Part shown: positions 8,694 to 62,722 of the stretch, piece after piece | How the letters are laid out: every line of letters begins with the position of its first letter | How positions within the stretch are numbered: position 1 is the first letter of the stretch | Assembly: GCF_004010195.1 (NCBI RefSeq) | Contig: NC_057718.1 | Coordinates: 55,613,285-55,677,284, forward strand | DNA length: 64,000 bases | Direction of reading: 5' to 3' | Origin: Chiloscyllium plagiosum | Taxonomy: Eukaryota | Position numbers and translations under genes: made by a program | Notes under the pieces: generated by a model | Seen by the model: only the letters and a program-made list of their open reading frames with translations | Databases searched by the model: none | Told to the model about the DNA's origin: nothing

Positions 8694-8969
<276 letters not shown>

Positions 8970-18280: not shown

Positions 18281-18990
18281 GTGGAGGTGCCAGTTTTGGA
18301 CTGGCATGGACAAAGTTAAAAATCGCATATGGACTGATAGCCTACAGACTCTGCACTTTCTGAACAAAACAGAACGTACTTGCAAATACAAATCTGCATA
18401 TGCAAATTCACCCTATAGATGTATGTGGGTGAGAGATAGTGTGTGTATGTGTGAGTGCACTCTCTCTCTCTCACACACGCGCACACACACACTCTCACAC
18501 TCACGCATATTCTCAGACTCTCCGCGCACGCACACAGACAGACACACACACACAGGCGCACACACACATATTCAGTTAGTCCATGTGACATTTTATAAAT
18601 TCCTGCTTTGGAAATAGAACTAGTTTGACTCATGGTTGGGAAGCAGACAGTCTCTGACCTCATACTTTTTAATGCATAGTCTGAGCTGAGATGTCACCTG
18701 TTTTTTACATAAAACCGTCAGTGACCTCTGAACTGACTTGAAGGAAGTTCTGGGATTTACATATTAATTAATTGAAGCTTGCACCTCCATCCTGTGATTA
18801 AAAACTTTACAGCAATCTAGGTTTGTTGAAGACATCGCATCAGGTGTATGACACGTTGATCTTTTACTATAAATTCTGTGTCCTATGATCCTGCCCCACT
18901 AGCTACCTGATGAAGGAGCAGTGCTCTGAAAGCTTGTACTTCCAGATAAACCTGTTGGGCTACAGCCTAGTAGTGTGTGATTTTGAACTA
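18281..18990 (+). mobile_element. PLE family B non-coding pLTR element with (GT)/(CA) tract, nested in the Gypsy integrase
   Basis: Shares body and terminus (CTGATGAAGGAGC...GAAAGCT...AAACCTGTTGG...TGTGTGATTTT) with 58309-58965. Confidence 0.65.
18904..18938 (+). ncRNA. Putative minimal hammerhead ribozyme (family B)
   Basis: tac-CTGATGA-a-ggagc(agt)gctct-GAAA-gc-TT-gta: both core boxes, helix II, 3-bp helix I (tac/gta) and palindromic AGCT in place of helix III. Confidence 0.6.
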
Positions 18991-19564
18991 AGCTTCAGGG
19001 GACCAAGTGTAGTGTTGAAACCACTGGAATGCTCCTGAATTGGTTAAAGGCATGGTTGATGCGAGGTCAGGTCCAATGATGATTAAATTTTAGGTAGGAG
19101 AGGTGGTCCTGAACAAGCATGTGGACCACATAGAAGCCGTAACATTTTAAAACGGGCAGGCGCAAAATATATCTTATCCTTCAAAACATCCGCAAGGCTG
19201 TCAGAACCTGTGGGTTCTATTGTCGAAGAAACCTTTGAGGACAAGATGGACACAGCAGAGGTCATGGCCCCGTTGCCATTACCACCTGAGAATGAGGAGG
19301 ACTTTCTTCTGAGATGATCCAGGCATAAGAGGTGGGATATAATCTGATACATGCTGTCAGGTTCAGTCGGAAGAACTGGACTTGGTGCAAAAACACCCCA
19401 GGGAAAACTACAGGGAAAGGAATGGGCGTACATGCTAGGACGTGTAAGGATGTAATGAATGGAACGAGGTCAGCCAGGTGGACCACATAGAATGAGTCCC
19501 CTGATTGCGGCTGTTAACTTGGTCCAATCAGGGAGGCCTGACTGACAGATATAAACAGAGTGTC

Positions 19565-20422
19565 CACTACCGCACTTAGGTGGTAGTGTGGGGAAAAAGA
19601 AAAAAAAAGAAAAAAACAAAAAAAGAAAAAAAAGGAAAAGAAAGAAAAAAAATAAACAGAGTGGCCAACTCTATTTTGATTTAATCCCTGCCCTGCCCTT
19701 CACTGTTTGATCAAGCAGTATTGCCCTTTGATGAGAAAGGCACTGCTTGTCATTGGCCACCCGGGTGTTTTCCTATCTTCCTGGTGGTGGAATTTGAATA
19801 AAGATTCGTGCACTTCGTGCCTTTCACTGTGTCTCACACCTGCACACACACACACCATGGGTGCTGGGGATAAAATAAGCACTACCGCACTTAGGTGGTA
19901 GTGTGGGGGTTAAATTATATATGAAAAAAAATAAGAAGAAAATAAACAGAGTGTCCAACTCTATTTTGATTTAATCCCTGCCCTGCCCTTCACTGACAAG
20001 CAGTATTGCCCTTTGATGAGAAAGGCACTGCTTGTCATTGGCCACTCGGGTGTTTCCTTTCTTCCTGGTGGTGGAAATTGAATAAAGATTCATACAGCTT
20101 GTGTCTCACACCTGCACACACACAACATGGGTGCTGGGGCAAAAATAAGCACTACCGCAGCTAGGCGGTAGTGTGGAGATTAATATAAAGAGAAAAAAAA
20201 GAAAAAATAAACAAGAGTGTCCAACTCTATTTTGATTTAATCCTTGCCCTGCCCTTCACTGATTGATCAAGCAGCATTGCCCTTTGATGAGAAGGGCACT
20301 GCTTGTCGCTGGCCACTCGGGTGTTTCCTTTCTTCCTGGTGGTGGAAATTTGAATAAAGATTCGTGCACCTTATGTCTTTCACAGTGTCTCACACCTGCA
20401 CACACACAAAAAAATTTTTAAA
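19565..20422 (+). mobile_element. Four head-to-tail polyadenylated copies of a non-LTR retroelement 3' end (possibly Tx1-like), separated by copies of the LTR target motif
   Basis: Units 19565-19650, 19666-19941, 19956-20206 and 20222-20422, each ending in an A-rich tail followed by an (AT)AAACAG(G)AGTGTC-like motif. Confidence 0.75.
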
Positions 20423-20877
20423 AATAGGAGTGTCAGAGATTCTGTTCACTTTGAAAAAAAGATAAACAGGAGTGGCAGGGGTTTTGCTCACTGTAGGAGT
20501 CAGCCTTGAACTAGCTGGATGAATGTCATGTACCACGACTATGTAAATAAAGGGTGACTTGGTGACAGGATACCAGCCTTCATGAAGTTATTTCACGAGG
20601 AGATGTGATTCCAGACAGCAACTGTAATCGGAAAAGAAAGTAAAATTAAATTCAGGAAAGACGGAGGCAACAAAAAGCAAGAGGCAACAGATCTGAAATT
20701 GTTGAATTCAGTGATAAATGTGAAAAGCTATCAAGTGTTTGGTGCTTGAGTTTGTGCTAGAACATTGAAGGGTTCAAGGACATGGGTCAGTATGGGAGCA
20801 AACTGGAAATTCTGAGTCACACTTGTGGACTGAGTAGAAGTTTGCTATAGAGCAATCATCCAATCTGCATTTGGTCT

Positions 20878-20973
20878 GAAAATGTGTTGCTGGAAAAGCG
20901 CAGCAGGTCAGGCAGCATCCAAGGAGCAGGAGAATCGACGTTTCGGGCATAAGCCCTTCTTCAGGAATGGATT
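20878..20973 (-). mobile_element. ~96-bp PLE family A mini-element
   Basis: TGCATTTGGTCT duplicated at 20866-20877 and 20974-20985. Confidence 0.8.
20937..20964 (-). ncRNA. Putative minimal hammerhead ribozyme (family A, core intact)
   Basis: Minus strand CTGAAGA-a-gggc(ttat)gccc-GAAA-cg-TC with palindromic ACGT and GUC triplet; helix I is weak (attc/gatt). Confidence 0.6.
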
Positions 20974-21248
20974 TGCATTTGGTCTATACAATGTCGATCA
21001 GATTGCACTGTGTATGAAAGATACAGCATGCTAAATTAAAATTTTCAGGCCAGGATGCCTCACATGGAGGGGCGCAATCTCCAAATTTTCCAACTTGTAA
21101 ATTAAAAAGTCTCTAAGCCAGGCAGCCTTTATGGAGGGTAACCCCATCCATCTAGCCTCCTGTATCTGTAGCTAAAGCCAAACAGGAGGAGAGGTTCTTG
21201 AGGATGGTTCGGAGCGCTGGGTCCCCCAGATCGCCATTGACAGGCTAT

Positions 21249-21931
21249 TGTTACGACACGGGATAAACCCCACTGCTTAATTTAAGCCAGCAACACAAAA
21301 GATAATCTGTGGAAATTCATGAGGCTAAGAAATATTTAAAGTAAGAAGTAACAACTTTATTTCTTAAAGTATAACAGAGAATAATAACTAACAACTATTT
21401 ACGATACCTATATTTTACATTCCCTTCAATAATACTAATCCGATAAATACCATGATTAAGATTTACCAAAAAAATCTAATTTCGAAACCAGGCAGCAGTC
21501 AAATCTTCCCTTTGTATGTTCCTCTGTAGATTTTCTTATTCTTAGGGACTTCTGTTTCACACGTCATTGATAGGTAAAGGTACCTTTAAAAGAGCTGTGT
21601 TTTGGGCAGTCTGTACAGCCTGGTGGCTTGACAGTTCTCCTCTAACTGTTCGATTTGTTTTCAGTTTTAGACCCAAAGCATCGGATCATTTCATTGGTGT
21701 TAATAGTGTCGAAATTCTAATTCAAACTTGATTGGAGTTTGGTATTTTGGCATAGTTTAAACTGATTGGATTAATTTGAATTTGTTTTTGTCACATAGCA
21801 ACCCAGCCAATTCTAGCTGTTCTGAACAAGCCTTACATTGTTACCTTGTTCCGGACTCTCTGTGCCTCTCTAAGTCATTGCTAGCTTTTCCACTTTCTTA
21901 AAGGTACAGTATCCCTTTCACCTTTATTACA
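21249..21931 (-). mobile_element. Solo LTR
   Basis: TGTTA...TTACA termini, CTAT target duplication, collinear with 39890-40588. Orientation inferred from the AATAAA position. Confidence 0.85.
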
Positions 21932-29559: not shown

Positions 29560-30842
29560 ATTCTCCAGGATACTGGCCTATAAATTCTCTTCCTCAGTTT
29601 GCTGTCTGAACTCAGCATTCTGGCAGCAACTATAATGGCTTGCTGGCCCGGATCCTGAAGAAAATTGTAACTGGCCAAGGCTTGGCTTTGTTTTGTTGGT
29701 TTTGCTGTAGGCTGACTTAGAATATGTTCAGGATATGTCCTGAGTGTGGCTATTTAATTGCCTTCACTCAAGTGGTGTTCCCTTAGCTCAGTCAACCTGG
29801 CGAGGGTGATTCCTTCCATTGGAAGCACTGCAACACGTGCTCTGCTTGCCTCATTCTCCAATGGCAAAGCCATTTGTAGTGCCTATTTGAAGTCCAGTTG
29901 GGCTTCAGCTTATAGGCACTTTTGCATAGTTACATCATTAATCCCACATACCAAATGGTATTTCAGCATCTCATTAAGGGTTAAATCAAGGTCACATGCC
30001 GCTGCCAGTCCTTTTAACCTTGTCAAAAATCCTGATACAGATTCTCCTGGTTCTTGAATTGCTGAGCAAAACCGATCGTGTTGTAGAATTAGAGAAGACT
30101 TGGGGTCATAATATTCCTTAACTAAATCCATCAAATCTTGAAAGGTTTTATTATCTGGTGCCTCTGGGAAAGTTAGGCTCCTAATAACTGAAAAAACTGT
30201 GGGTCCACAAGCTGTCAGGAAAATTACTGGTTGTTTTTCATCTGCCTCAATGTCATTTGCCTGGAAAGAAATAACACATTCTTTCCACATATTGGGCCAA
30301 GTCTTTGACAGCAGGGTCAAACGAGTCGAGCTTCCCAAATATTGGCATGATGCCAGAAATGATTATCCCAACTCAAAAAGCAACTGTTCCAAATGAATTT
30401 CTACAGAAACATATCCCAATCTCATCACCACTGTAGTAATTCCACAGAGACTGGTATCCCATCACCAAGTTACCTTTTATTTACGCGTGAACAGTCCTTG
30501 ACTTTAGTACTGACTCTTTAGAGTCAACTATCAGAGTAGCAGTATCTTTGACACCTCTGTTTTTTTTTATCGAGTGCAGAAACTTTATTCACATTCCACC
30601 ACCAGGAAGAAAAAGCACCCTAGTGGCCAGTGACAAGCAGTACCCCTCTCGTCAAGGGCAATGTCTACATGAACGAAAAAGTGAACTGAAGAGGGCAGGG
30701 ATTAATTCAAAGTAGATTTGGGGCAGGGGACACTCCTGTTTATAACTATCAGCCAGGTTCTTGATTGGGGCTGCTAATCTGATCCAATCAGAAAAGTCAG
30801 ATTCCATGAGGTCTGCCAGCTGACGTTGTTACAATCACTACA
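29560..30842 (-). mobile_element. Gypsy LTR retrotransposon 5' part: 5' LTR (30432-30842), TGG-initiated PBS and decayed gag
   Basis: Gag motifs FLTACG, QEPGESVSGFLTRLKGLAAAC and LVCGIND. LTR homologous to 19451-20595. Confidence 0.8.
30560..30728 (-). mobile_element. Polyadenylated retroelement 3' end inserted at the LTR TATA-adjacent motif
   Basis: Homologous to the 19666-19810 unit; flanked on the minus strand by AAACAGGAGTGTC and AAACAGAGGTGTC. Confidence 0.75.
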
Positions 30843-37140: not shown

Positions 37141-37894
37141 TATTATGAATAATTTATAATTTTGAGATTTTTTTATTTTGTATGTTAAGAGGGAAAGACA
37201 TGGGTAGACCTTTTTAAGTTCATTAGTGAGCTTAGGGCTGTGGCATATAGAAGTTTGGAGAGCTATTTTGGTTTATGTGCATTTTTGAGGTTTTAAACCC
37301 TAAGGTTAATAGTTCTATGCACTAGAAAATAGATAAATGAGGGCAAAAAAGTGCTATTGCCTGGCGGTAGGGCGCTAGTAACACATAGAGAATAGCAGAA
37401 TTCACATAGTTGGTTAGTGTGGAATATGCTCGATACTGAAGGATTGTTGACACTGAATTTAGAGAACTCAGGTTTTCTTAGAAGTTAAAGTCATTATGAG
37501 TTCATTTGCAGTTTGTTTTAGGTGTCTCTGAGAGAAGCACTAGATAAAGGGAAAAAGTGTTTAGTGACTGCAAAGAAATTCACAGAAGCTTGTGCTGAGC
37601 AAGAAACTTAAGTGTGAAGGTTTGGTTTCCCAGATATTGCTAGGAAATAGGGCTAATATGAGCTTGAATCCTTATATGATATGTGCTATGAAATCATTTC
37701 AGTCTTTTTATTTATGGTGTAATACAGCTCAGGCCTTTTTTGTTTAATAAATACTTCATTCTTTGTGTACCTTTTGTGAACATGTACAGTAATTGGCCTT
37801 CATGACTACTAAACAAATAAAGCTAGGATTTAACAAACTTGTTTTCTTCTGGGATCTGGCTTGTCCAGTATTAACATTGGCTAGGGTCATAACA
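37141..37894 (+). mobile_element. Solo LTR
   Basis: TATTATG...CATAACA inverted termini (one mismatch), TTAG/TTAA flanks, AATAAA at ~37746. Confidence 0.6.
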
Positions 37895-38127
37895 TTAAAT
37901 GAGAATAGATGGGAGGAGGCTTCAGTGGTACACAACAAGGCCATGCTGGTTTTTATGTAACACTGAAGCCTCCTCCCATCTATTCTCATTTAATGTTATG
38001 ACCCTAGCCGATGTTAATACTGGACAAGCCAGATCCCAGAAGAAAACAAGTTTGTTAAATCCTAGCATTATTTGTTTAGTAATAGATGGGAGGAGGCTTC
38101 AGTGGTGCATAAAAATCAGCATGGCCT

Positions 38128-38810
38128 TGTTGTGAGTAAATCACAAGTTACCTTTACTTCGGCTACTTATTTGGAAATATCACAGATAATCAAGTACTGA
38201 AACAATAATTTAAGCTTTATTGCATGTATCAACTAAAATAAGACCCCTTAAGTAAACAAGCTAAGCCTCACAACTCAACTTGGCTATTACCTGATTAATG
38301 ATGGAATCTGGCCAGGATTCTAAACAAAAGTCTCTGGAAGTCTCCAGGGATCGATCCTTTTGCATTATTGTTCTTCAAAGTTCTGTTACTGACTTGTTCT
38401 GGTGTTGGATTTTTCTACAATTTTCTCTTTTAAGTTTGTGGTGTGGCATTGATGATTCAATGGATTCTTTTTTCCCCAACATTGATTACTTTCCTGGAGA
38501 CCTGAAGTCCGTAGCTTGCCTTCTTATCTGAAGTAGGTCCTCTGTTCCTTGTTATATTCAGGGTTAGCTGTCTGTTTAAAACATAGCTTTTCTTGCAATT
38601 AATCCCTTTTCTTCAGAATATTACTTAAGCAGACATAATTGCCCATTTGTTACAAGACAGAAAGTTATCAACCACTTGTTATCTCCTGTCTTCCAGAAGT
38701 GACCAATTCACGTGTTGCTTTTTAAATTTTTTATTGACATCTTTCACCTGTAGAAACAGTTTATTCCAGAAAGAGTTATTCATTCAATCTGTGAAGTTTG
38801 CATTGTCACA
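38128..38810. mobile_element. Solo LTR
   Basis: TGT...ACA termini, exact GCCT target duplication, interrupts a CR1 3' UTR. Confidence 0.7.
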
Positions 38811-41328: not shown

Positions 41329-41900
41329 ATGGCCTAGACATATTATCGCTAGACAAGTAATCCAGAGATGATAGTGTGTTTCTGGAAAAGCACAGCAGGT
41401 CAGGCGGCATCCAAGGAGCAGGAAAATTGACGTTTTGGGCCGGAGCCCTTTGTCATTCCTGATGAAGGATTCAGGCCCAAAACGTTGATTTTCCTGCTCC
41501 TCGAATGCTGCCTGACCTGCTGTGTTTTTCCAGCAACACACTCTCAACTCTGATCTCCAGCATCTGCAGATCTCACTGCCTCCTACATAATCCAGAGACT
41601 CTGGTAATGTTCTGGGGGGGACCCTGGTTCAGATCTTGCCATGGTAGGTGGTAGAATTTGAATTCAATAAACATCTGGAATTAGGAGTCTGATGATGACT
41701 GTGAATCATTGTTGATTGTTGGAAAAACTCGTCTGGTTTATTAATACTTTTTAGGCAAGGAAACTGCTGATCTTACCTGGTCTGGCCTATACATAACTCC
41801 AGAACCACAGCAATATGATTGACACTTAAGTGCCCTTTGGGCAATTAGGCATGGGTAATAAATGCTAGCCGTGATGCCCATATTCCTGTGAATGAATATA
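41329..41900 (+). mobile_element. tRNA-derived SINE (third family; related pieces at ~16240-16311 and ~54410-54650) with a nested PLE fold-back mini-element at 41369-41587
   Basis: Shared GCTAGACAAGTAATCCAGA...GGTTC...GAATTTGAATTCA motif; nested element bounded by TAATCCAGAGA at 41358-41368 and 41588-41598. Confidence 0.65.
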
Positions 41901-43669: not shown

Positions 43670-43881
43670 GAGAAAGTGAGGTCTGCAGATGCTGGAGATC
43701 AGAGATGGAAATGTGTTGCTGGAAAAGCGCAGCAGGTCAGGCAGCATCTAGGGAACAGGAGAATCGACGTTTAGGGCATTAGCCCTTCTTCAGGAAGAAG
43801 GGCTAATGCCCGAAACGTCGATTCTCCTGTTCCCTAGATGCTGCCTGACCTGCTGCGCTTTTCCAGCAACACATTTCCATC
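43670..43881. mobile_element. Young PLE family A fold-back mini-element
   Basis: TCCTACAGGCTTTATG duplicated at 43654-43669 and 43882-43897; unpaired tail plus ~90-bp inverted arms around a 2-nt centre. Confidence 0.9.
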
Positions 43882-44675
43882 TCCTACAGGCTTTATGCCC
43901 TGTTAATTCCCCTAGTACTTTTTCTCTAGTGATAGTTACTATGTTTACCTACATTACTTCCCCTCCCCCTCTGTTGCATGTTTTTATCTTTCAATTCTAA
44001 GTCTAATCTACTAGTGTCAGTTGTAGTGTGTAATTTACAATCTTTTAAAATTGTTGAGGTTTAATTAATTCAGTTATAACTAACTACTTATAAATGCCTA
44101 TTGTAATTGGATATCAATCAGAACCTCAAAATATTTTCTTTGAGAAAACCTTCCACTGATATCACTGACCTGGACAATATGCTCGTAACAATAGAACATT
44201 GATGGAGGAACCTGAAATTTGGCATTCAGAGTTGTAAAAATCTTTCAATAGTTAAAGATAGGTCAAAAGTTAACAATATTGAAGATATGAGACCGTTAGC
44301 AGTGGTTTGTAAGTTTTATTTTAAGAGAAAAACTTAATGTAGGAATTTAATTTTAACTGACTACTCTTTCACTCATATGTCTTAGTTAAAAATATAAACA
44401 TTCTGATTTATCAGTAGAACACTGCTTTCTGGAATCAGAGCTATGAGCAGACTTCTTCCACCCTCTGAAAACATGTAAAATAATGAGTCAGTTTGGGAAA
44501 ATATGGAGACATCAGAAAAATGTGATCCTCAAGAAAAAAAAATCTGATTTTGCAGCCAAAGTTTGAACAACTTGTTCATTGTTATGTCATTTAAACACAG
44601 TTTGCTATTCTCCCATGAGGCAGAGATAAACTTGATAGTAGCAATTACTGACATGAAAGTGTACTCACCACTTAA

Positions 44676-47334: not shown

Positions 47335-50300
47335 AGAAATGATCGGGGCCTCTTTAAGAGATTTAGACAGTGAGTGGTAGGTGCTAGTGTCTTTATTTCG
47401 GGTGTTGGTTTGGTTGGGTGGACAAAGCTTGGGATAGCAATGGCTCTTTCAGTGGCGAAGAGTTTTCTGGAGGTGGATGAGGTGACTTTGGAAATTTTTC
47501 AGAAGGTGAATAAGACCAAGCTGCAGAAGTTAGTAGTCAAGCTGGTGTTGAAGCTACCTCCTAATGTGAGGAAAGATGTAGCAGTAGCTCCACATTCAAA
47601 TTTGCTAGAAACACTATCAGGATCTATAGATATGCCAATAATTCAATTGCAAATGAAGCAGCTTGAGGTAGAGGTGAGAGATAAGGAGAAGGCAGCAGAA
47701 TTGAAACAGTTTGAGTTATGATTAAAAGCAGAAGAGAGAGAAAAGAGAGAGCAGCAGAAGGGGAGAAAAGAGAGAGCAGTAGAAGAGAGAGAAAAGGAGA
47801 GAACTTCAGAAACTAACACTTAAAAGGGGAAGTCAGCATAAAATGATGGAGGTGAAAGCTTAAAGTAGGGTTAGTGAGGCAGAGTGAGGATGAGCAAGTC
47901 CCTGGTAATTAAAAGCCTAGTGAAAAACTGTTTAAGTATGTTCAAGCATGGCCTAAATTTGATGAGAAGGATGCGGAAGACTTTTTCATCTCATTTGAAA
48001 AAGTGGCAAAACAAATGCAGTGGCCAGTGACCATTGATCCAAACAAAACTTGTAGTAGAGCTAGTGAGATCTTTGCATCACTATGAGAGGAGGTATCTGG
48101 GGAGTATGAGGAGGTGAAAAAAGCCATCTCAAGTTCATATGAGTTTGTACCAGAAGCCTATAGACAATGTTTCAGGAATCTAAGGAGGAACCTTGGTCAA
48201 ACCTATCTTGAGTTTGAAAGGATCAAATAGAGTAATTTTGATAAATGGATAAGAGCTTTAAAAATAGATCAAACTACAATGCCTTTAGAGAGGTAATTAT
48301 TTTGGAAGAATTCAAAAATTAATTGCCTGAAAGGGAAAGGTAGATCTTAGTGAAGTTCATAAGGATAACTTACCATAGGGTAAAAAAGAAACCCTTGAAG
48401 TGGACAAAAATGCAAAAAGCTCCGGTGTCTTCATTGTAATAAAGTGGGACACATGAAATCACAGTGTTGATAGGCTAGGAGGAAGCAAGGTGTAGGAAAA
48501 CAGGACAAGCCTGGAAGTTTTGTTGGCATGGTAACAGAAAGCACAGTGGAAGCTAGAAAGCTGCATCGGAGGTTGATTAAGGAGCACATGCCAGATTTGT
48601 TTAAAAAATAAACATGCAAGGGTAAAGTTTATCCACATAGGCCAGGAGTACCGAGTAAAGAGGTTACAATATTAAGGGACACAGTCTGTGATGCTGAAGG
48701 ATGAGGAGATATGTACTACTGAAGGACAATTGTCAGAAGAGATACTGGTAACAGGAATTCATGGAGAAACTAAAAACGCTCGATTATGTAAACTGAGGCT
48801 AGAGTGTCCAGAATAGAGTGGAGAATTTGTGGTAGGAGTACTGGACAAACTGTCAGCTCCAGGAATACAACTTGGCCTTGCAAATGATATAACTGATTCA
48901 CTGGTAGGTGTATTGCCTACTCTATGGAAAAGCTAGTGGAGACACAGGCAACTGAAGCAATACAGAAGATTTATCTGGGAATCTTCCCAGATTGTGTCTT
49001 AACGAGATCAGAGTCACAAGTTGAACGAGGAGAGATCAAAAGGCACAAATAAGGAAGCGCAAGTAGCATTATCAAAATACATTTTTTGATCAGATGAGCG
49101 GGACAGAACAAGAGCAAATAGATAAATATGCAAAATATCTTTAGCTCTGCTAAGGTTATTGAGTTGCAGCAGAAAGATTAAAATTTAAAATAGTTGTATG
49201 AAAAGGCATACACAGAGAAGGAGAGTGAATAAATCTATGTGTATTATTACTTAACAAATGATGTCTTAATGAGGAAATGGAGACCATCGCATATTCAAGC
49301 AGATGAGAAATGGGCAGAAGTTCATCAAATTGTTTTGCCAGTAGGGTATAGAAAGGAGGTGCTGCGAATGGCACATGAGCTGTCACTTAGAGGTCATTCA
49401 GGAGTAAGGAAAACACAGGCTAAAAAACAAAGACATTTTTACTGGCCTGGACGACACAAGGATGTAGTTGAATTTTGCCAGACAAATCATACATGTTAGT
49501 TAAATGGAAAACCACAGACAGTAATAAAACCTGCACCTTTTATACCTATTCCAACATTTGAAGAATCCTTCACAAGAGTCTTGATTGATTGCTTAGGTCT
49601 TCTACTCAAAACAAAAGGTGGGAATAAATATTTATTAGCAGTAATGGATGCATCAACTAGATTTCCCGAGGCAGTCACATTATGCAATATCACAGCAAAA
49701 AGGGTTGTAGAGGAATTAATCAATTTTTTTTTACTAGATACGGACTACCAATAAAGATCCAGTCAGATCAAGGGTCAAACTTCACATCCAAACTATTCAA
49801 GGAAGTTATGGATAACTTGGGAATAAAACAACTCAAATCTACTGGGTACCATCCAGAATCGAAATGAGTGCTAGAAAGTGATATCAAACACTAAAGACCA
49901 TGTTGAGGGTTTATAGTGAGGACTATCCAAATGATTGAAATAAGGGAGTTCTGTTTGTGCTTTTTGCAATCAGAGATGCATTGAATGAATGGACCAAATT
50001 CAGACCATATGAATTATTTTTTGGGCATGAAGGAAGAGGGCTGTTAAAATTGATTAAGGAGAAATTAGTGTCAGAATTGAGAGACCACCCATTTGGACTA
50101 TATGTCAAATTTTAGAGAACAACTAAATAGAGCTGGGGAGTTTGCTGGACAGCATTTAAAAGTATTTAGCATACAATGGAACACGAAGTGGACAAGAAAT
50201 CAAAAATTCACAATTTTGCCATTGGGATAAGGTATTGGTGTTACATCCCGTAATAGGTGAACCTTTAAAAGCAAGGTTTAGTGGACCTTATCAAACAAGA

Positions 50301-52915
50301 GGAAATTGAGTGAGATGAACTACTTGTTAGGGGCTCCAGGCAGGAAGAAATTAGATTAGATTACATACAGTGTGGAAACAGGCCCTTCGGCCCAACAAGT
50401 CCACACCGCCCCGCCGAAGCGCAACCCACCCATACCCCTACCCCTACATCTACCCCTTACCTAACACTACGGGCAATTTAGCCTGGCCAATTCACCTGAC
50501 CTGCACATCTTTGGACTGTGGGAGGAAACCGGAGCACCCGGAGGAAACCCACGCAGACACGGGGAGAACGTGCAAACTCCACACAGTCAGTCGCCTGAGG
50601 CGGGAATTGAACCCGGGTCTCTGGCGCTGTGAGGCAGCAGTGCTAACCACTGGGTTACCGTGCCGCCCAAATCTCTCAGCATGCTCAAAAGGTATTTTGA
50701 CGGAGAAGGAAAGCAAGAGGAGGTGTTAATGGTTACAGCCCAGAAGAAAGAACCAAGTTCAGACGATTCTGAATTGGACATTCCTCAAATCAAATTGGAC
50801 AATGAGGAAATTGTCAAAAATTGGGATAAATTATTGAGTTACCTTCCACAAGAAAATTGAAATGACCTGAAAGAATTATTACTATCACATGAGGAGATAT
50901 ATGGAAATAAACTGGGAAGTACTAACCTAATTGTGCAAGATGAAAATATAGGAGATGCTGTTCTGATTAAACAACATCCTTATAGGATGTCTCAAGTTGG
51001 CACAGATTCAGAAGGAGTTAAACGCATGTTCCAAGATAGCATAATCAAAGTGAGTTACAGTGACTGCAGCTCACCCACAGTCATGGTGCCAGAGCCAGAT
51101 GGTACCCAACAGTTATGTGTGGACTATCGCAAAGTCAGTGCAGTTACAAAGACTGATTTTGAGCACTGTGTTGAAAATGTGAGAAAGAAACTTACATTTC
51201 TAAGCTGAACTTGCTCAGAGGCAACTGGCAAGTACTTCGTCAGGGAGGGCAAAGACAATTTCGGCTTTCGTAACACCTAATGGACCATATCAGTTCAGAG
51301 TCGTGCTATTTGCTATGAAAAATGCTCCAGCCACATTTTGGAGACAAATTAATAATGTCATTGCCAGATACCCAATTGCGTGGTGTATATTGATGACCTG
51401 GTGATTTTTAGTCACTCATGGAAGGAACATTTACAGCATTTATCGGACTTGTTCATTTGTCTTCGGAAGGTAGGCTCGGTGGTAAACCTAGCTAAAAGTG
51501 AGTTTGCCAAAGCCCAAGTCACCTTCCTGGGCCATGTTATTGGACATGAACAAATGGTCCCAAACGAATGCAAAAATGAAAGTAATTGGGGAATTTCCCA
51601 CACTATTGATGAAAAGAGCAGTACTACGATTCCTGGGATTGAGTGGATTTTACCAAAAGTTTGTGCTGAATTTTAGCGGTGTGGCTGCTCCACTCACTGA
51701 ATTGTTAAAAAAGGGCAAGAAGTTTCAATGGATAGCAGACTGTCAAAAGGCATTTGACAGCCTAAAAACTGTATTAACCACTGCCCCAGTATTAGCCACA
51801 TCAGATTACATGAAGCCTTTCAAAGTGGCTATTGATGCCGGTGATGGGGTTGGTCAGTGTGGTGCTCCTACAGGAGGTTGACGAGGGGACAGAAAAACCC
51901 ATCAGGTATTTTTCCAGGAAGTTGAACATTCATCAACAGAAATACTCGACAGTTGAGAAAGAGAGTTTGAGCTTGGTGTTGGCATTACAACACTTCAATG
52001 TTTATATTACCAGCAACACATCTGAGACAATTGTATACACTGACCATAACCTATTAACATTTGTGGAGAAAATGCCAGACTGTTTAGATGGCGCTTGTTG
52101 TTGTAGCCATTTAATTTCACAATTGTGCATTTGGCAGGTCGCAAAACCATGATTGCTGATGCGTTGTCAAGACTCGAATGAGATATGAAGGTGTTTGGTG
52201 GCGGGTGTGCCACGACCTGAATTCGAATGTGGTTGTGCATGTTTGCATGTGTCTAGTCAGTGTAGTGTATATGTGTGTGTTTTTTTTGAGGAATTTTGAA
52301 AATAAAGCCGTCTTTTTTAAGGGGGAGCGATGTGTCACAAAACTGGTCATTTTTTCTAAAAGCTGTTCCTTTTTTCAAGGATACTGTATCCTTGGCTTTT
52401 TCAGAGAGGTCGTAAAACAGTCCGGGCTTTGAAATGACTGGTTTGGTACAGAGATGAAAGGATTTACTGAGAGGCCTTTTTGTTTATACGTAAACAGATG
52501 GGACTTTAGGCCAAAGCTTTTATGTTTTAGAAGTGGCCTGTATAATGAAAGTGGAGTGATCAGTCCTAAAAGCTGAAGACTTGTTTGAGTCAGTGCAGCA
52601 GAAGCTGTGTGGAAACAGCCTGATAAAGTCTCTCTCCTTCTGCCCTTCTAACTTCGACCTGTTAGTCTTTGTTTAATTTTTGCTCTGTGTTTAAGGAGTT
52701 TGTTTATTGGGACTGTTGCAGCATAATTTAAGTCTAGTTTGGATATTTTGTGGGTATTCTTTATTCTTTTTTTGTCTATTTTAAAACCTAGTTGTCAACC
52801 TAGCTAACTTAATCCAGGTAATTGTCACTGTACACTTACCGAAACAAATAGCAAAGTTACGGTCTGGGTTGCCTGCTTAAGAATGTTTTGAGTGGTCTGG
52901 CCTAGACCATAAAAA
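47335..52915 (+). mobile_element. Gmr1-type Gypsy LTR retrotransposon, decayed: gag, protease, integrase, RT, RNase H, polypurine tract, 3' LTR (~52331-52915); 5' LTR not seen
   Basis: CLHCNKVGHMKSQC knuckle at 48426-48467; VTILRDT ~48663; HHCC-like, IDCLG, SDQGSNF and YHPES at 49370-49860; YIDD ~51386; YSTVEKE, TDH and ADALSR to ~52172; AAGGGGGAG before TGT. Confidence 0.9.
50351..50668 (-). mobile_element. Full-length young HE1-type SINE nested in the Gypsy pol
   Basis: Near-identical to 36311-36621; AAAT duplication. Confidence 0.9.
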
Positions 52916-55605: not shown

Positions 55606-56614
55606 CAAAGACAGAACCCACCCCCCGGTCCGCATCTTCCACCCCACCAACCTCTGCATAAACCGCATCATCCTCTGACACTTGCATCACCTACGAATGT
55701 ACCCCACCACCAGGGATGTATTTCCCTCCCCACCCTTACCTGCTTACTGCAAAAACCATTCGCTCCGTGACTACCTAGTCAGGACCACGCCCCCCCAACA
55801 ACCCACCCTCCCCTCCTGGCACCTTATCCTGCTACCGCAGGAATTGCAAAATCTGCACCTCCCACATCACCTCATTCAAGGCCTCAAAGGAGACTTCCAC
55901 ATTCATCAAAGTTTCATCTGCACTTCCACAAATGTCATTTATTGCATCCGTTGCTCCCAATGTGGTCTCCTTTACATTGGGGAGTCTAGACGCCTTCTCA
56001 CAGAGTGCTTCAGGGAACATCTCCTAGACACCCACACCAATCAACCCCACCATCCTGTGGCCAAACATTTCAACTTCCCCTCCACTCTGCCAAGGACATA
56101 CAGGTCTTGGGGCTCCTCACTGCCACTCCTTCACCACCTGACACCTGGAGGAAGAACGCCTCATCTTCCGCCTCAGAACCCTTCAACCCCAGGGCATCAA
56201 TGTGGACTTCACCAGTTTCCTCATTTCCCCTCCCCCCACCTTGCCCAAGTTCCAACTTCCAGCTCAACACCATCCTCATTTCCTGTCCCACCTGTCAATC
56301 TTCCTTCGCACCTATCCGCTCCACCCTCCTCTCCGACCAATCACCTTTACCCCTTCCTCCATCCACTTATNNNNNNNNNNNNNCACCTATCCGCTCCACC
56401 CTCCTCTCCGACCAATCACCTTTACCCCTTCCTCCATCCTCTTATTGCACTCCCAGCTACCTTCTCCCCAGCCCCACCCCCTCCCATTTATCTCTCTGCA
56501 CCCCCGAGGCTTCCAGCCTCATTCCTGATGAAGGACTCCTGCCCGAAACATCGATTTTCCTGCCGCTCGGATGCTACCTGACCTGCAGTGCATTTCCAGC
56601 ACCACTATAATCTT
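55606..56614 (+). mobile_element. Penelope-like element (family A) 3' part with GIY-YIG
   Basis: NVIYCIRCSQCGLLYIGESRRLLTECFREH in ORF 55682..56581; hammerhead-like core at 56525-56552. Confidence 0.9.
56371..56383. other. Assembly gap (13 N) with duplicated flanks
   Basis: 56309-56370 is repeated at 56384-56444. Confidence 0.9.
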
Positions 56615-56780: not shown

Positions 56781-57689
56781 CTTAAATGTAGGAGAGTTGA
56801 TCAATATGCTGTGGATGATATGAAAATTGGTGGTGTGGTAAATAGGAGGTTAGCCTTAGAATACAAAAGGATATAGATGCCTGATCAGTGGGAAATGAAA
56901 TTCAATTCAGATAAATGTGATGTGATGCACCTGGGCAGGATGAACAAGGCAGACAAAGGAATACATGATAAATGGTAGAAACACTGAGGATCAGACGGAC
57001 GTTGATGTGCATGTCCACCTGTTCCTTATGGTTTTGGGATAATTACTTAAAGTGGTTAGGAAGGGATATGGAATACTTGTCTTTATTGGGGAGGCATAGA
57101 GTTTAGGAACAGGGAGGTGATGCTGGAAATCTAGCAATAGCTTAACTAATGTTTCATGGCGTATTGTACAGTTCTGGATTCCACATATAGGAGGGATTTG
57201 ATTGCACTGGAGAGAGTACAGAGGAGGTTTACCAGGATTTGCTTAGCCTGGAGAGTTTTAGTTATGAAAAGATCGCGGATAGACTAGTGTTATTTTCCTT
57301 AGAGCGGCAGAGGCTGAAGGGGAGGGACATGATTGAGATGTATAAACAGGAAGATACCTTTCTACTTGGTGGAAGGATCAATGACCGGGAGCACACCTTT
57401 AAAGTAGGGGCAGGAGGTTTAGAAGGTGTGTGAAAGAGTTCTTCCTCACACAGAGTGGTGTGAATCTGGAACTCGCTGACTATAAGGGTGCTAAGGTAGA
57501 AACCCTCACAAAAACGTTTAGTATTTAGATGTTCCAATGTGACGCCAAGGCATACAAGGCTTTGGGCAAGTGCTGGAAAATTGGACTACAATAATTAGTC
57601 TTTGGCCAGTGCAGATTTCATTTGCAAAGGACCTTTGCTGTGCTGCAGACCTCTTGTTCTTGCTTAAAGTCTGAAATGTAGATGTTAGC

Positions 57690-58308: not shown

Positions 58309-58965
58309 TTGGAGGTGCCGATGTTGGACTGGGAAGCCCATTGTCTATTTGACTATGGTCCTAGCAGAGAATGTTAAAAATCACACAACACCAGGTTATA
58401 GTCCAACAGGTTTATTTGGAAGCAGTAGCTTTTGGAGCGCTGCTCCTTCATCAGGTGGTTGTGGAGGTTAAGATCATGCTCACAGAAGTAAATGAGCAAA
58501 ATAAAATGTAATTCTGCAAAAACAAATTCACCCCATAATTACATTTTACTTTGCTCAAAAACTGCATGAATCCATGTTAAACCATGTAAAACTATAAAAA
58601 GGGTTTGTCAGTCTGACATAGCATTGGGATACACTCAGACTTCACACCTATTGTTTAAAAACCTGAGCTATCTTGAGAATGTAAGTTAAAAGAAGTTCTT
58701 TGGATTTATATATCAAAGAACAGAAACCAGCATATCCTATTAGAAAGGATGAAAGTTTTAATCTGAGATTGTTTACTGTATCACATCTCCATGACACTGG
58801 ATTCCTTTGGCTATAAAGTTGACATTTTACCACTTTTTGAAGACTTTCCAACATGTGAGCTTGATCTTAATCTCCACAATCAACTGATGAAGGAGCGGTG
58901 CTTCAAAAGCTAGTGCTTCAAAATAAACCTGTTGGATTATAACCTGGTGTTGTGTGATTTTTAAC
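58309..58965. mobile_element. PLE family B non-coding element with inverted pLTR arms
   Basis: Arms 58373-58484 and 58854-58965, each with CTGATGAAGGAGC; ATTC(T)TCTGCTAGGAC duplicated at 58293-58308 and 58966-58980. Confidence 0.8.
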
Positions 58966-61354
58966 ATTCTCTGCTAGGACCATAGTCAAATAGACAATGG
59001 GCTTCTTGAAAATAAGATTCTGATTCTTGGATCAGTCTGAGAGAGCTTTGCTATGAACAATTGGAGCAGGCAAGGGGTGAATGTGATGGACATTGGAAGA
59101 ATGGCAGCAATATCCTGAGAGGGAAGACAGAAGACATTGAACAGGAGGAACATCACCTCCTTTGTTGCGATAGAATCTTGTAGCATTGGGCTTGACAAGG
59201 AAGATGGGATTTAGTTAACATTACATCCAAAGGATCTGAACTAGCTGTAGTGATCATTCCTTGACTGTAAATTTGTTGCTTCTTGAAGGGACTGCTTGTT
59301 TATGCTCCAAGTTTTTTTTGCTTTTCATGCTGTTCAATACAAGTTGACATTTTACCACTTTTTGAAGACTTTCCAACATGTGAAGAATCCCACACTGAAT
59401 AATGACAAGATATTAGACTTGGCATTGGGGCAAGAGTAGCACTCCCTGAGATGAGATTATTAAATGGTATGGTGTTATATCTGGGTGTAGCTTCATTCTT
59501 GTAGCTGCAGTTGCTGACAGATGATGTAAGGTAGCAGTGCACTTACAAATAATATTTTGTTTCTAATGAAGTATCACATATGCCAATTATATGCCTTCAG
59601 ATACTGTTCTTTTTCGATTCCCTCCCATTATATGTACTGTGAGAAGTTGTTCATGACTAGCAGCAATTGGCAGCTAAGCAATCCCAGAAGAACCCTGATT
59701 GGCTAGTACTTCTGCCATTGGTGATTACAAGATAGCTTGAGTGGAGTGCCATAAGAGGTGTGGTGCATACATAATAAGGTGAGAGCAGATTATTTCATGA
59801 GAACACAAGAGTTCATGAAAAGAAGCCTTCCGTGAAATTTCTCAGTTTCCTTTGGTAAAGTTTAGCCCTACTTATTTTCCTTGGGCTTTGAAAATTCAGT
59901 GTCTTTATTCAAGGTGTAAGTTAGAAATTAAATATACTTTATGCATTTTTTCTTCAGCTTGATATACTTAAATTAAGCATGGATAACCTGTTTAAATGTT
60001 GAATTTAAAAGAAACCTATTCCAGTTCATCTGACCTACATTCCAATAATTTCAAGCAGCACAAAGCTGAAATACTGTAACATGGAGAGAAACAATTTGAG
60101 TATCCACTCAGAAAAGTGAACAATAAAATGTTTCAACTTGTATATGAACTAAAAGACTATCAAAGATAGGGCAGATGTGTATTTGAGCCAACTAGGTAGA
60201 GCATGGATTGAACAAAAAGGAAAAATAAACAAAGGGCCACATCGGTTCATAGTGCAGAACCAGGGCCAAAACTGGATGAGGAAGATAATTAGACAGAGCA
60301 CAGAGGATATCTGAAGTTTCAGGAGTGGTACAAGACTGACTGACAGTATAAGGCATGAAGAATGAAATAAGACAAAATGTCCAGGGGACCCAAGGTGCTG
60401 AAACACTATATTTGCCAGGAAGCTTGCAGTCTGACAAGTTTCTATAGTGGTTCTCATTAAAAATGTAGACAAAATCATTTTTAATGAAGTGGTATTGCAG
60501 GAATTTTCTGAGATTCTAGATTTAGGTGTTTTGATCCCAACTGATGTTGCTGGACAAGTGAGATCTTAGAATATGAGCTGGCTTGATAGACTACATTTTG
60601 GCTTTAACAAGGTGGTGGTCTTTTACTGAACAGCACACACTCAATGCTTCAGATTGGAATTTCACCACAATAGTTAATCACACAAAAGAAATGTAGTTAA
60701 AATGGTTTAAAAGAAATCCTGTTTCAAAAGTAAAAATGCTATCCCACTAATCCCAACAGCATCCCATTCAGTACTGAAATATCAGAGAGAATTGTCTTCT
60801 CATATCACATAGGATTTGACTTAGCTGTGGCTTAACTTCCCAGTCATGAGAAGCTCATCCTCTTCCTTGATTCATCATGTAACCAAGGTTAAATTTTCTG
60901 AGCTTCAAACAAGTCCCTCAGCATTTTAACCAAACACATCTGGTCTGTAAACTTCAATTAAACTCCATGACACAGAGGTAACCTCATTTAAAATTGTTTT
61001 AAAAATTAGCCTTATTCCAAAGAGCAATTTTGTATATCCAGCTTCAGTTAAGAAATTTCCGGAACTGCTCAATATGGGCCTTAGCACAAGCCCACATTTC
61101 CTGAATCTTTTCGGAAAGCTAAATACTGTACTTTGTGTGCTCAAATTTTCTCTGCCTTGATTAAATGGTAAATAAAATTCATTTTTCATTTCAAATACTT
61201 TAAAGATTGCAAAACAGCAGCAGTATGTTTCCTTCCTTGTATTCAGAAGCAAAAAACAATGCTGACTTCTTTTTCTTCAAGAGATTTATAATGTCATTTT
61301 GACTAATATCCACTCTCACAGTATGGATAAAATATTTGAGGATCTTTATTTTAG

Positions 61355-61681
<327 letters not shown>

Positions 61682-62505
61682 TGATCTTTTTCTCCCTTAT
61701 TTGGAAATGCATGCCTTCATCTATGCCATGTTATAATTCTTTCATTTCTGTATGGTCATAGTAAAGCTGCTCATGAAAACAATAAGTGGATATTGACCTA
61801 TTAAATACAGTTTCAAATGATTCGTGCAATTCTTATTAGAGAAAAATTACATTTATAGTTTCGACCAAATTGTGCAAGTGTATTTGCATATTTGCAAAGA
61901 CAAGGTGCCACTGGCAACTTCCTGCATACTCACCATTACATGAACCAGTTACTGTTGATGATGCTGGCTTGTCCTCTGCCTATCTGAAGTAGCTGATCAT
62001 GGATGACCAAGACATAAGCTGATGTCAATCGTTAATGCGTTGTAAGAATATCAAGAATGGATAGTAAATATGTAAACACTATTTAGGCATTCCAGAGATT
62101 AACTTTTAATTTTGTCCCTTGTTACTCATACACTCCTCAGCAGAAAGTCTTTCTTGGTCCTCTCATATGTTGTTGGTTCCAATGTGGACCATGAAAGGCA
62201 GATTCTTCCCCTCCTGTTCCAAGTTCAATTCCAGGCTTGAGGAGATCTTCATAATCCTGGTAATGGACAAGCAACATTGCCATTTGGGACTTGTGTGTTC
62301 TGCTGCAAAGAACAATGTCTGTCTGTTTAACTATACTGTCCTTCATTATTGCATCAAGTTAACTTTTTTTCCATCTCCCACAAAAAACCTTGAATATCCC
62401 TGGATTGTTAAACTGTGGTCAGTTTACATCTCTTCCCTTCAGTTGCTAGTCTTGTCTACACAAGCTGACTAAAGTTGAATCTGCTGGACAATGCAGGCGT
62501 TAAGA

Positions 62506-62722
62506 TTCGAGTGTGTGGTGCTAGAAAAGCACAGCAGGTCAGGCAGCATCCGAGGAGCAGGAGAATCAAACTTACAGGCAAGAGCGGCCTCATTTCTGAT
62601 GAAGGATTCTTGCCCGAAATGTCAATTCTCCTGCTTCTCTGATGCTGCCTAACCTGCTGTGCTTTTCTAGCACCACACTCTCAACTCTGATCTCCAGCAT
62701 CTGCAGTTCTCACTTTCTCCTC
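62506..62722. mobile_element. PLE family A fold-back mini-element
   Basis: Inverted arms plus tail; ATGCAGGCGTTAAGA (62491-62505) and ATGCAGGGGCTAAGA (62723-62737). Confidence 0.8.

Follow-up and report, generated by a model that had tools for sequence, protein, structure and literature searches.

Human L1 leaves copies that are truncated at the 5' end, hold an AATAAA signal and a poly(A) tail, lie between target duplicates of about 15 bp and may carry transduced 3' sequence. The enzyme nicks at the junction of a T tract and an A, with the consensus 5'-TTTT/AA-3' (PMC1950540). LINEs of the Tx1 type are known to target transposons, LTR elements included, in frogs and crocodilians, and tandem copies round a duplicated target are also known. 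Tx1 is cited as an example of insertion into other transposons (PMC6719617), and the Tx1L endonuclease nicks almost solely at its target site (PMC1950540, PMC6719617, PMC4494074). A non-LTR retrotransposon has been defined as target-specific when more than 20% of its flanks are of one type (Kojima 2015, PMC4494074), and the main text of that paper describes two crocodilian Tx1-clade LINEs, Tx1-8_Crp and Tx1-4_AMi, that insert preferentially into LTR retrotransposons. It also describes tandem copies of SINEU-3 around a 16-bp duplicated target, which were read as sequential insertions; for SINEU-3 and Tx1-Mar in Mariner-N4_AMi, hitch-hiking was tested with truncated copies and transcription from the target was proposed.

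Here we analysed a window of 64,000 nucleotides (the whole stretch of Chiloscyllium plagiosum DNA under study) in which A-tailed pieces of one element lie at the TATA-like box of an LTR. Like the probable LINE studied here, Tx1-8_Crp and Tx1-4_AMi are reported to target LTR retrotransposons, although the main text of PMC4494074 names no LTR family and no position for them. The target in our window is instead a 14-15-base word at a TATA-like box, and the element is known from its 3' ends alone. SINEU-3 and Tx1-Mar, as described there, resemble the present array in forming tandem copies round a duplicated target, but their target is a DNA transposon and the SINEU-3 body is derived from U2 snRNA, whereas the element here has no RNA-gene head. 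Tx1L of Xenopus laevis is likewise a LINE aimed at one site in another transposon; in the cited accounts its target is the DNA transposon Tx1D and its specificity is biochemical, whereas here specificity is read from sequence. Human L1 shares with our element the poly(A) tail, AATAAA, 5' truncation, target duplication, putative 3' transduction and probable type of nick site, but its short consensus lets it enter a great many unrelated places, whereas the pieces here have one 15-base word in one LTR family in common.

An earlier sequence-only reading of this locus had presented the kind of target as new. This was overstated, because the main text of PMC4494074 already reports Tx1 LINEs that prefer LTR retrotransposons and already suggests that the target may drive transcription. 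No LINE targeting an LTR TATA box, and no such family in cartilaginous fish, was found in literature titles and abstract openings; Repbase, subscription journals and the supplements of PMC4494074 lie outside this search, and Repbase or the supplements may name the crocodilian site. The gain is therefore a new target, not a new mechanism: a clean case, present in very many copies, in which the core promoter of one transposon is the target of another. The re-created 15-base target is a ready substrate for testing how a LINE endonuclease reads sequence, which bears on tools for site-specific gene insertion.

Layout of the array in LTR a

The Gypsy-type LTR a spans from TG at 19451 to CA at 20595, and four A-tailed pieces fill the region just 3' of its TATAAA. 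Six target words of 13-15 bases (T1-T6) set these pieces apart from one another and from a short stretch derived from the LTR, as follows.

18990..19450, + strand: broken reading frames 5' of LTR a, which may resemble the end of a Gypsy pol gene
19451..19564, + strand: left part of host LTR a, 114 bp; begins TG; CCAAT 19524, TATAAA 19550; identity to its counterpart in LTR b about 70%
19551..19564, + strand: target word T1, overlapping the TATA-like box
19565..19651, + strand: copy 1; 9-bp hairpin 19565-19588, then the A-rich tail
19652..19665, + strand: target word T2
19666..19941, + strand: copy 2; putative stop TAA 19682-19684, AATAAA 19797, (CA)n, hairpin 19880-19903, tail
19942..19955, + strand: target word T3
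19956..20206, + strand: copy 3; like copy 2 but for two deletions in it; hairpin variant with full Watson-Crick stem
20207..20221, + strand: target word T4
20222..20421, + strand: copy 4; body up to (CA)n at 20408, A/T tract after
20422..20461, + strand: target word T5 (20422-20434) and the LTR-derived piece
20462..20476, + strand: target word T6
20477..20595, + strand: right part of host LTR a, 119 bp; own AATAAA 20546; terminal CA

The CCAAT and TATAAA positions and the target words or variants placed by the sequence-only reading at 19551, 19652, 19942, 20207, 20422 and 20462 were all correct when re-read from the sequence and by script, and the four A-tailed pieces between them were seen as claimed, with every coordinate right. 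The exact word ATAAACAG(N)AGTGTC occurs three times in the window and in none of 100 shuffles. Its loose form (2 edits) occurs 9 times, compared to a mean of 2.4 in 30 shuffles, which is weak taken alone; the word is significant because it is placed directly before every element piece, not because of this loose-match count. Tail and target word together spell AATAAA at 19651, 19941 and 20206.

Copy 1 holds only the hairpin and an A-rich tail of 58 nt, and copy 4 ends at the (CA)n tract, both as had been described. That the tails differ is clear for copies 1 and 4, but those of copies 2 and 3 can be aligned and have a common TTAA..TATA..G-interrupted pattern. The first 29 nt of copy 1 are identical to the corresponding part of copy 2. 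In their common body copies 2, 3 and 4 are 92.5-94.7% identical, and each has substitutions of its own (6, 4 and 5, respectively), a star-like pattern. They have in common their 5' base and three alleles that are in the minority across the family (20251 G, 20270 A and 20290 A, with 5%, 11% and 18% of family depth in sequencing run X1). From the common 5' base, the minority alleles and the alignable tails of copies 2 and 3, we infer that copies 2-3, perhaps 2-4, stem from a single source or from local duplication, and copies 2-3 may be a local duplication. The caveat that part of the array may be tandem duplication is supported by the same features. Copy 1 is likely to be a separate and late event, since its 5' start is unlike theirs and its long tail opens directly in A's.

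These features are also what would be seen if a single old insertion had hitch-hiked within the LTR as the latter spread and had then been duplicated locally by unequal recombination: copies 2-4 begin at an identical base, hold minority alleles in common and diverge in a star-like manner, and the tails of copies 2-3 can be aligned. Local duplication probably explains copies 2-3, but as the whole explanation it is unlikely. The separate start and tail of copy 1 already disagree with hitch-hiking, which we regard as very improbable in view of this and of the second locus and contigs described below.

The hairpin is more stable than its shuffles (z -2.8 in copy 1, z -3.8 in copy 3), while for a stem-loop inside the body, at 19735-19795, shuffled letters fold equally well (z -0.46). 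The peptide S-N-S-I-L-I-stop, said to lie near the start of copies 2-4, was found in copies 3 and 4, while copy 2 reads A-N-S-I-L-I-stop; the reading takes two of its letters from the target word. We rejected this peptide as evidence for a clade. A fifth piece at 30 kb reads P-K-S-T-L-N-stop.

The stretch 20435-20461 had been taken for element sequence and is corrected here to 19 LTR bases with a short A tract. The piece 20422-20461 consists of a target word, 19 LTR-downstream bases and seven A's, and differs from T6 and its downstream sequence at 6 of 29 positions. The chance of this many mismatches is 0.007-0.02 at a divergence of 6-7.5% (as among copies 2-4), 0.06 at 10% and 0.26 at 15%. 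Other contigs continue from this piece straight into LTR sequence (joints 20454 to 20541-20544). The piece is a candidate 3' transduction, in which LTR sequence would have been carried from a donor in another LTR copy; it may also be an older local duplication. It stops 28-29 bases past a tail-target AATAAA, the hexamer at this junction being degenerate; transcripts usually end 10-30 bases past AATAAA.

A second filled LTR and searches of the window

Self-comparison of the window revealed a second locus, absent from the sequence-only reading. LTR b (30432-30842, minus strand) is about 70% identical to LTR a on both sides of the insertion site.

30729..30842, - strand: left part of host LTR b, 114 bp; ends in a target word at 30743-30729
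30571..30728, - strand: fifth element piece, 74-76% identical to copies 2-4; AATAAA 30589
30550..30570, - strand: A tract and a second, diverged target word
30432..30549, - strand: right part of host LTR b, 118 bp; terminal CA; followed by a stretch that we take to be primer-binding-site-like
29910..30362, - strand: gag-like ORF behind LTR b (Pfam and ESM Atlas)

The last target base lies 114 bp from the LTR 5' end in LTR a and LTR b alike; CCAAT has offset 74 in one and 75 in the other, and TATAAA offset 100 and 99, respectively. The fifth piece reaches 8 nt beyond the 5' start of copies 2-4, and its 3' end is 13 nt past its AATAAA. The claim that one LTR site was hit repeatedly is supported, as a second, separately truncated piece lies at the same LTR offset and the joints described below give more 5' starts by a target. 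The different ends of this piece argue against hitch-hiking of a single insertion. In favour of hitch-hiking, and against independent insertion, divergence between the two loci is similar for the element (about 25%) and the LTR (about 30%), as co-descent predicts; equally, the window holds no empty LTR of this family, both being filled.

The gag-like ORF had sub-threshold matches to two Pfam families, Retrotrans_gag (E 0.0075) and PNMA (E 0.005), and its best ESM Atlas score (0.97) was for a cluster in which 23% of the members carry Retrotrans_gag; two protein searches gave no relative at E 0.001. An LTR running from TG to CA and followed by a gag-like ORF is the arrangement of a Gypsy-type LTR retrotransposon, and it is on the ORF behind LTR b that the assignment of the host as an LTR retrotransposon is based. 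No pol of the host family was detected in the window, and the three ORFs tested within 18990..19450 had no Pfam match. The bases just 3' of LTR a (20596-20610) can be aligned to the primer-binding-site-like stretch that follows LTR b. Pol-like remnants precede LTR a, yet a primer-binding-site-like stretch follows it, and LTR a may be shared by two tandem elements.

Sensitive searches with the LTR halves and the element pieces recovered only these two LTRs and only five element pieces in the window, all five inside the two LTRs. The element was absent from the other 63 of 65 TATAAA hexamers in the window, from a 10-base near-match to the target at 57341 and from another Gypsy element at 47.4-52.9 kb. 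This distribution counts against the LTR being only a hot spot, where a very abundant, loosely targeted L1-type LINE enters many TTT/A-like sites and simply finds a favourable, copy-gathering one in the LTR TATAAA. In favour of a hot spot, the site read on its minus strand resembles the L1 consensus 5'-TTTT/AA-3' (PMC1950540). With the depths and joints from public runs also considered (see below), we judge this alternative to be improbable.

Pfam was run on 148 ORFs of the window, in sets of 12 and 136 (from a list of 160, 14 were left out, most overlapping high-copy short repeats), and no L1/Tx1 coding fragment was found among these 148. Equally, no tRNA and no Rfam match at gathering score was found in the window, and none of 8 weak Rfam matches in 18400-21600 overlaps the array. 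The element does not have the head from a tRNA, 5S, 7SL or snRNA by which a SINE is recognised, whereas the A-rich 3' tail, 5' truncation and target duplication of more than 10 bp that define the L1/Tx1 group are all present. The element motif had no loci in metagenome and viral contigs, and the LTR motif none in metagenome, viral and prokaryote contigs.

Depth, joints and RNA in public sequencing runs

Positions 20100-20860 were matched at 80% likeness to four of 24 public runs, the reference being without the hairpin, tail, T4 and left LTR half. Matches were obtained for 11,568 of 25.8 million contigs in run X1, 10,184 of 21.2 million in X13 (from an organism other than that of X1), 718 of 1.84 million in X15 and 1,283 of 12.96 million raw RNA reads in X21. 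The summed depth of the element body peaked at about 2.0 million, against 15 for the single-copy flank, in X1 and at 0.3 million, against 8, in X13, and that of the LTR core was 217,000 and 106,000, respectively; these sums are not copy numbers. The element is a very high-copy repeat. The body-to-core ratio comes to 9.4 for X1 and 2.9 for X13, and that of LTR core to flank to about 14,400 and 13,300 (again, not copy numbers). As the first ratio differs between the two runs while the second is alike, multiplication of the element seems to have been separate from that of the LTR, and the threefold difference between two organisms counts against hitch-hiking. With 3 to 9 times the depth of the LTR core, the body could include many off-target copies, as a mere hot spot would predict, although the ratio can be inflated by stacking and by LTR divergence.

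The right end of LTR a is seen in the contigs, of which 445 in X1 and 673 in X13 diverge at 20595 into unrelated letters. One X13 contig covers 20552-20859 and differs at 10 positions, which places the LTR end at the orthologous locus as well.

Fifteen of 115 joints were listed, with the letters between the two sides given for 12 of 40; these 12 comprise six element-end joints, five LTR-to-LTR joints and one internal deletion. Among the joints listed, five of the six element-end joints lie within three edits of the target word. Three of the six are detectable only because the reference holds the target, while the other three, which join element to element, are free of that bias. Two of these three unbiased joints carry the target word (2 and 3 edits; up to three edits were found in 8 of 2000 random controls), which argues against loose targeting; the third is without it (6 edits, chance level), which agrees with a hot spot and weighs against our preferred reading of a target-preferring LINE.

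At least seven further 5' starts occur among the joints listed (20273, 20280, 20291, 20300, 20322, 20330 and 20390), at least four of which adjoin a target word in the contigs. Arrays of differently truncated copies therefore exist at other loci, which a single hitch-hiking insertion would not give. Independent copies with different 5' ends at one site, as expected of a target-specific element, were found both in the two LTRs and in these contig starts.

Off-target copies appear as loose ends and never as joints, and 24 of 813 loose ends were listed. Of 24 pieces listed, eight start at 20220 or 20222. Such a recurring start, together with the single base at which three copies of the array begin, could mean that the unit from 19666 is a short SINE-like non-autonomous retroposon moved by a target-specific LINE, its common start being a true 5' end; SINEU-3 forms tandem arrays of this kind in the main text of PMC4494074. 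We give this possibility very little credence. The unit is without a tRNA or Rfam head, the copy at 30 kb extends further 5', and one contig of the RNA run has 208 further letters upstream. Moreover, six of the pieces listed match from 20220, two letters before the start, and none from 20216, where the four preceding target letters begin, as would be the case if element sequence continued upstream. A microhomology of 2 bases, shared by the target end and the upstream sequence of the element, may explain the recurring start.

In X21, about 97% of the body depth has its first mate on the minus strand. The second mate represents the RNA strand in such libraries, and minus-strand first mates then fit sense reads. 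As proof of independent transcription this bias was rejected, because oligo-dT priming on genomic A tails looks identical. At 20408 and 20409, 258 and 55 reads, respectively, leave the reference into the sequence of 19855-19869 and then into A's. These reads represent polyadenylated or A-primed RNA containing the element end, and they suggest that many copies stop about 40 bases short of the hairpin end; a DNA joint (20411 to 20455) also ends near this point. At least four distinct 3' end points are present when the 30 kb piece and copy 4 are included, as would be expected under poly(A)-dependent, L1-like mobilisation.

Proposed insertion mechanism and setting in the window

In two diverged LTRs, the pieces lie at the same site, in the same orientation and between flanking targets; they have varied 5' and 3' ends and A-rich tails, and the element is abundant. 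We consider it likely that they are the 3' ends of a target-preferring LINE of the L1/Tx1 type, with some local duplication. By analogy, the element appears to work like a target-specific Tx1 LINE, and the arrays described in the main text of PMC4494074 are a precedent for its architecture. Against this reading, its coding part is represented here by only 6-8 codons before a putative stop, and the six-codon reading has changed in the 30 kb piece.

The pieces would then be 5'-truncated 3' ends, inserted by target-primed reverse transcription. A putative APE-type endonuclease would nick the minus strand inside the TATAAA of the Gypsy-type LTR, at a site combining an L1-like consensus with an added preference for the following bases, and the A tail would prime reverse transcription at the nick. 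A second-strand cut 14-15 bases away would duplicate the target word, and the duplicated word would re-create the site, which is then likely to be hit again. The serial target-primed insertion proposed by the sequence-only reading fits the A-tailed insertions at one LTR site and the duplicated target; it does not extend to the whole of copies 2-4, which are probably in part local duplication.

The orientation of the pieces makes LTR-driven transcription possible. Transcription starts 25-31 bases past a TATA box. Such a start would lie some 10-17 bases inside the first copy and would shorten the copy with each round, which argues against the LTR as the only promoter. A tentative and rather unlikely extension is that the LINE is parasitic on the promoter: it would home to the LTR TATA box and be transcribed from the LTR CCAAT/TATA promoter, the Gypsy element would be cut off from its own start site, the tail-target AATAAA would release transcripts about 30 bases on, and 20422-20461 would be the footprint of an LTR-driven source copy. 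If the LTR does drive the LINE and is disabled by it, the two would form a testable parasite-of-a-parasite relation that may limit the spread of Gypsy.

In character the window is intronic DNA of a vertebrate type, and its repeats may resemble those of sharks. Pfam identified exons of an EML-type WD40 beta-propeller gene in window ORFs at 8694-8969 and 61355-61681 on the + strand, and the array at 19451-20595 probably sits in an intron of this EML-type gene. LTR a and LTR b both lie between the EML-type exons, one sense and one antisense. Long, near-perfect inverted repeats occur at 58333-59005 and 37807-38134 (152 nt at 93%, and 277 nt self-complementary at 94%). At 56371-56383 a 13-N assembly gap has a 62-base direct repeat on either side, probably a scaffolding artefact.

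A core motif that we take to be hammerhead-ribozyme-like occurs 12 times in the window, compared to 2.1 expected. No Rfam hammerhead match at gathering score was found at the motif sites, and simple folding recovered none. Its positions include the following.

1906, 4694, 16885, 18907, 32732, 56525 and 62596: hammerhead-like core motif

Six of the 12 belong to one high-copy repeat that itself occurs in inverted pairs (43702-43883, 41363-41552, 62491-62700) and looks like a Penelope-like element.

The other Gypsy element, at 47370-52910 on the + strand, is broken and belongs to a family other than the host of the array. Its integrase zinc-binding domain lies upstream of the RT, an order that we take to be Gmr1-type.

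49233-49496, + strand: integrase zinc-binding domain
51356-51673, + strand: RT
51492-52149, + strand: RNase H

This element is interrupted at about 50350-50670 by a short repeat.
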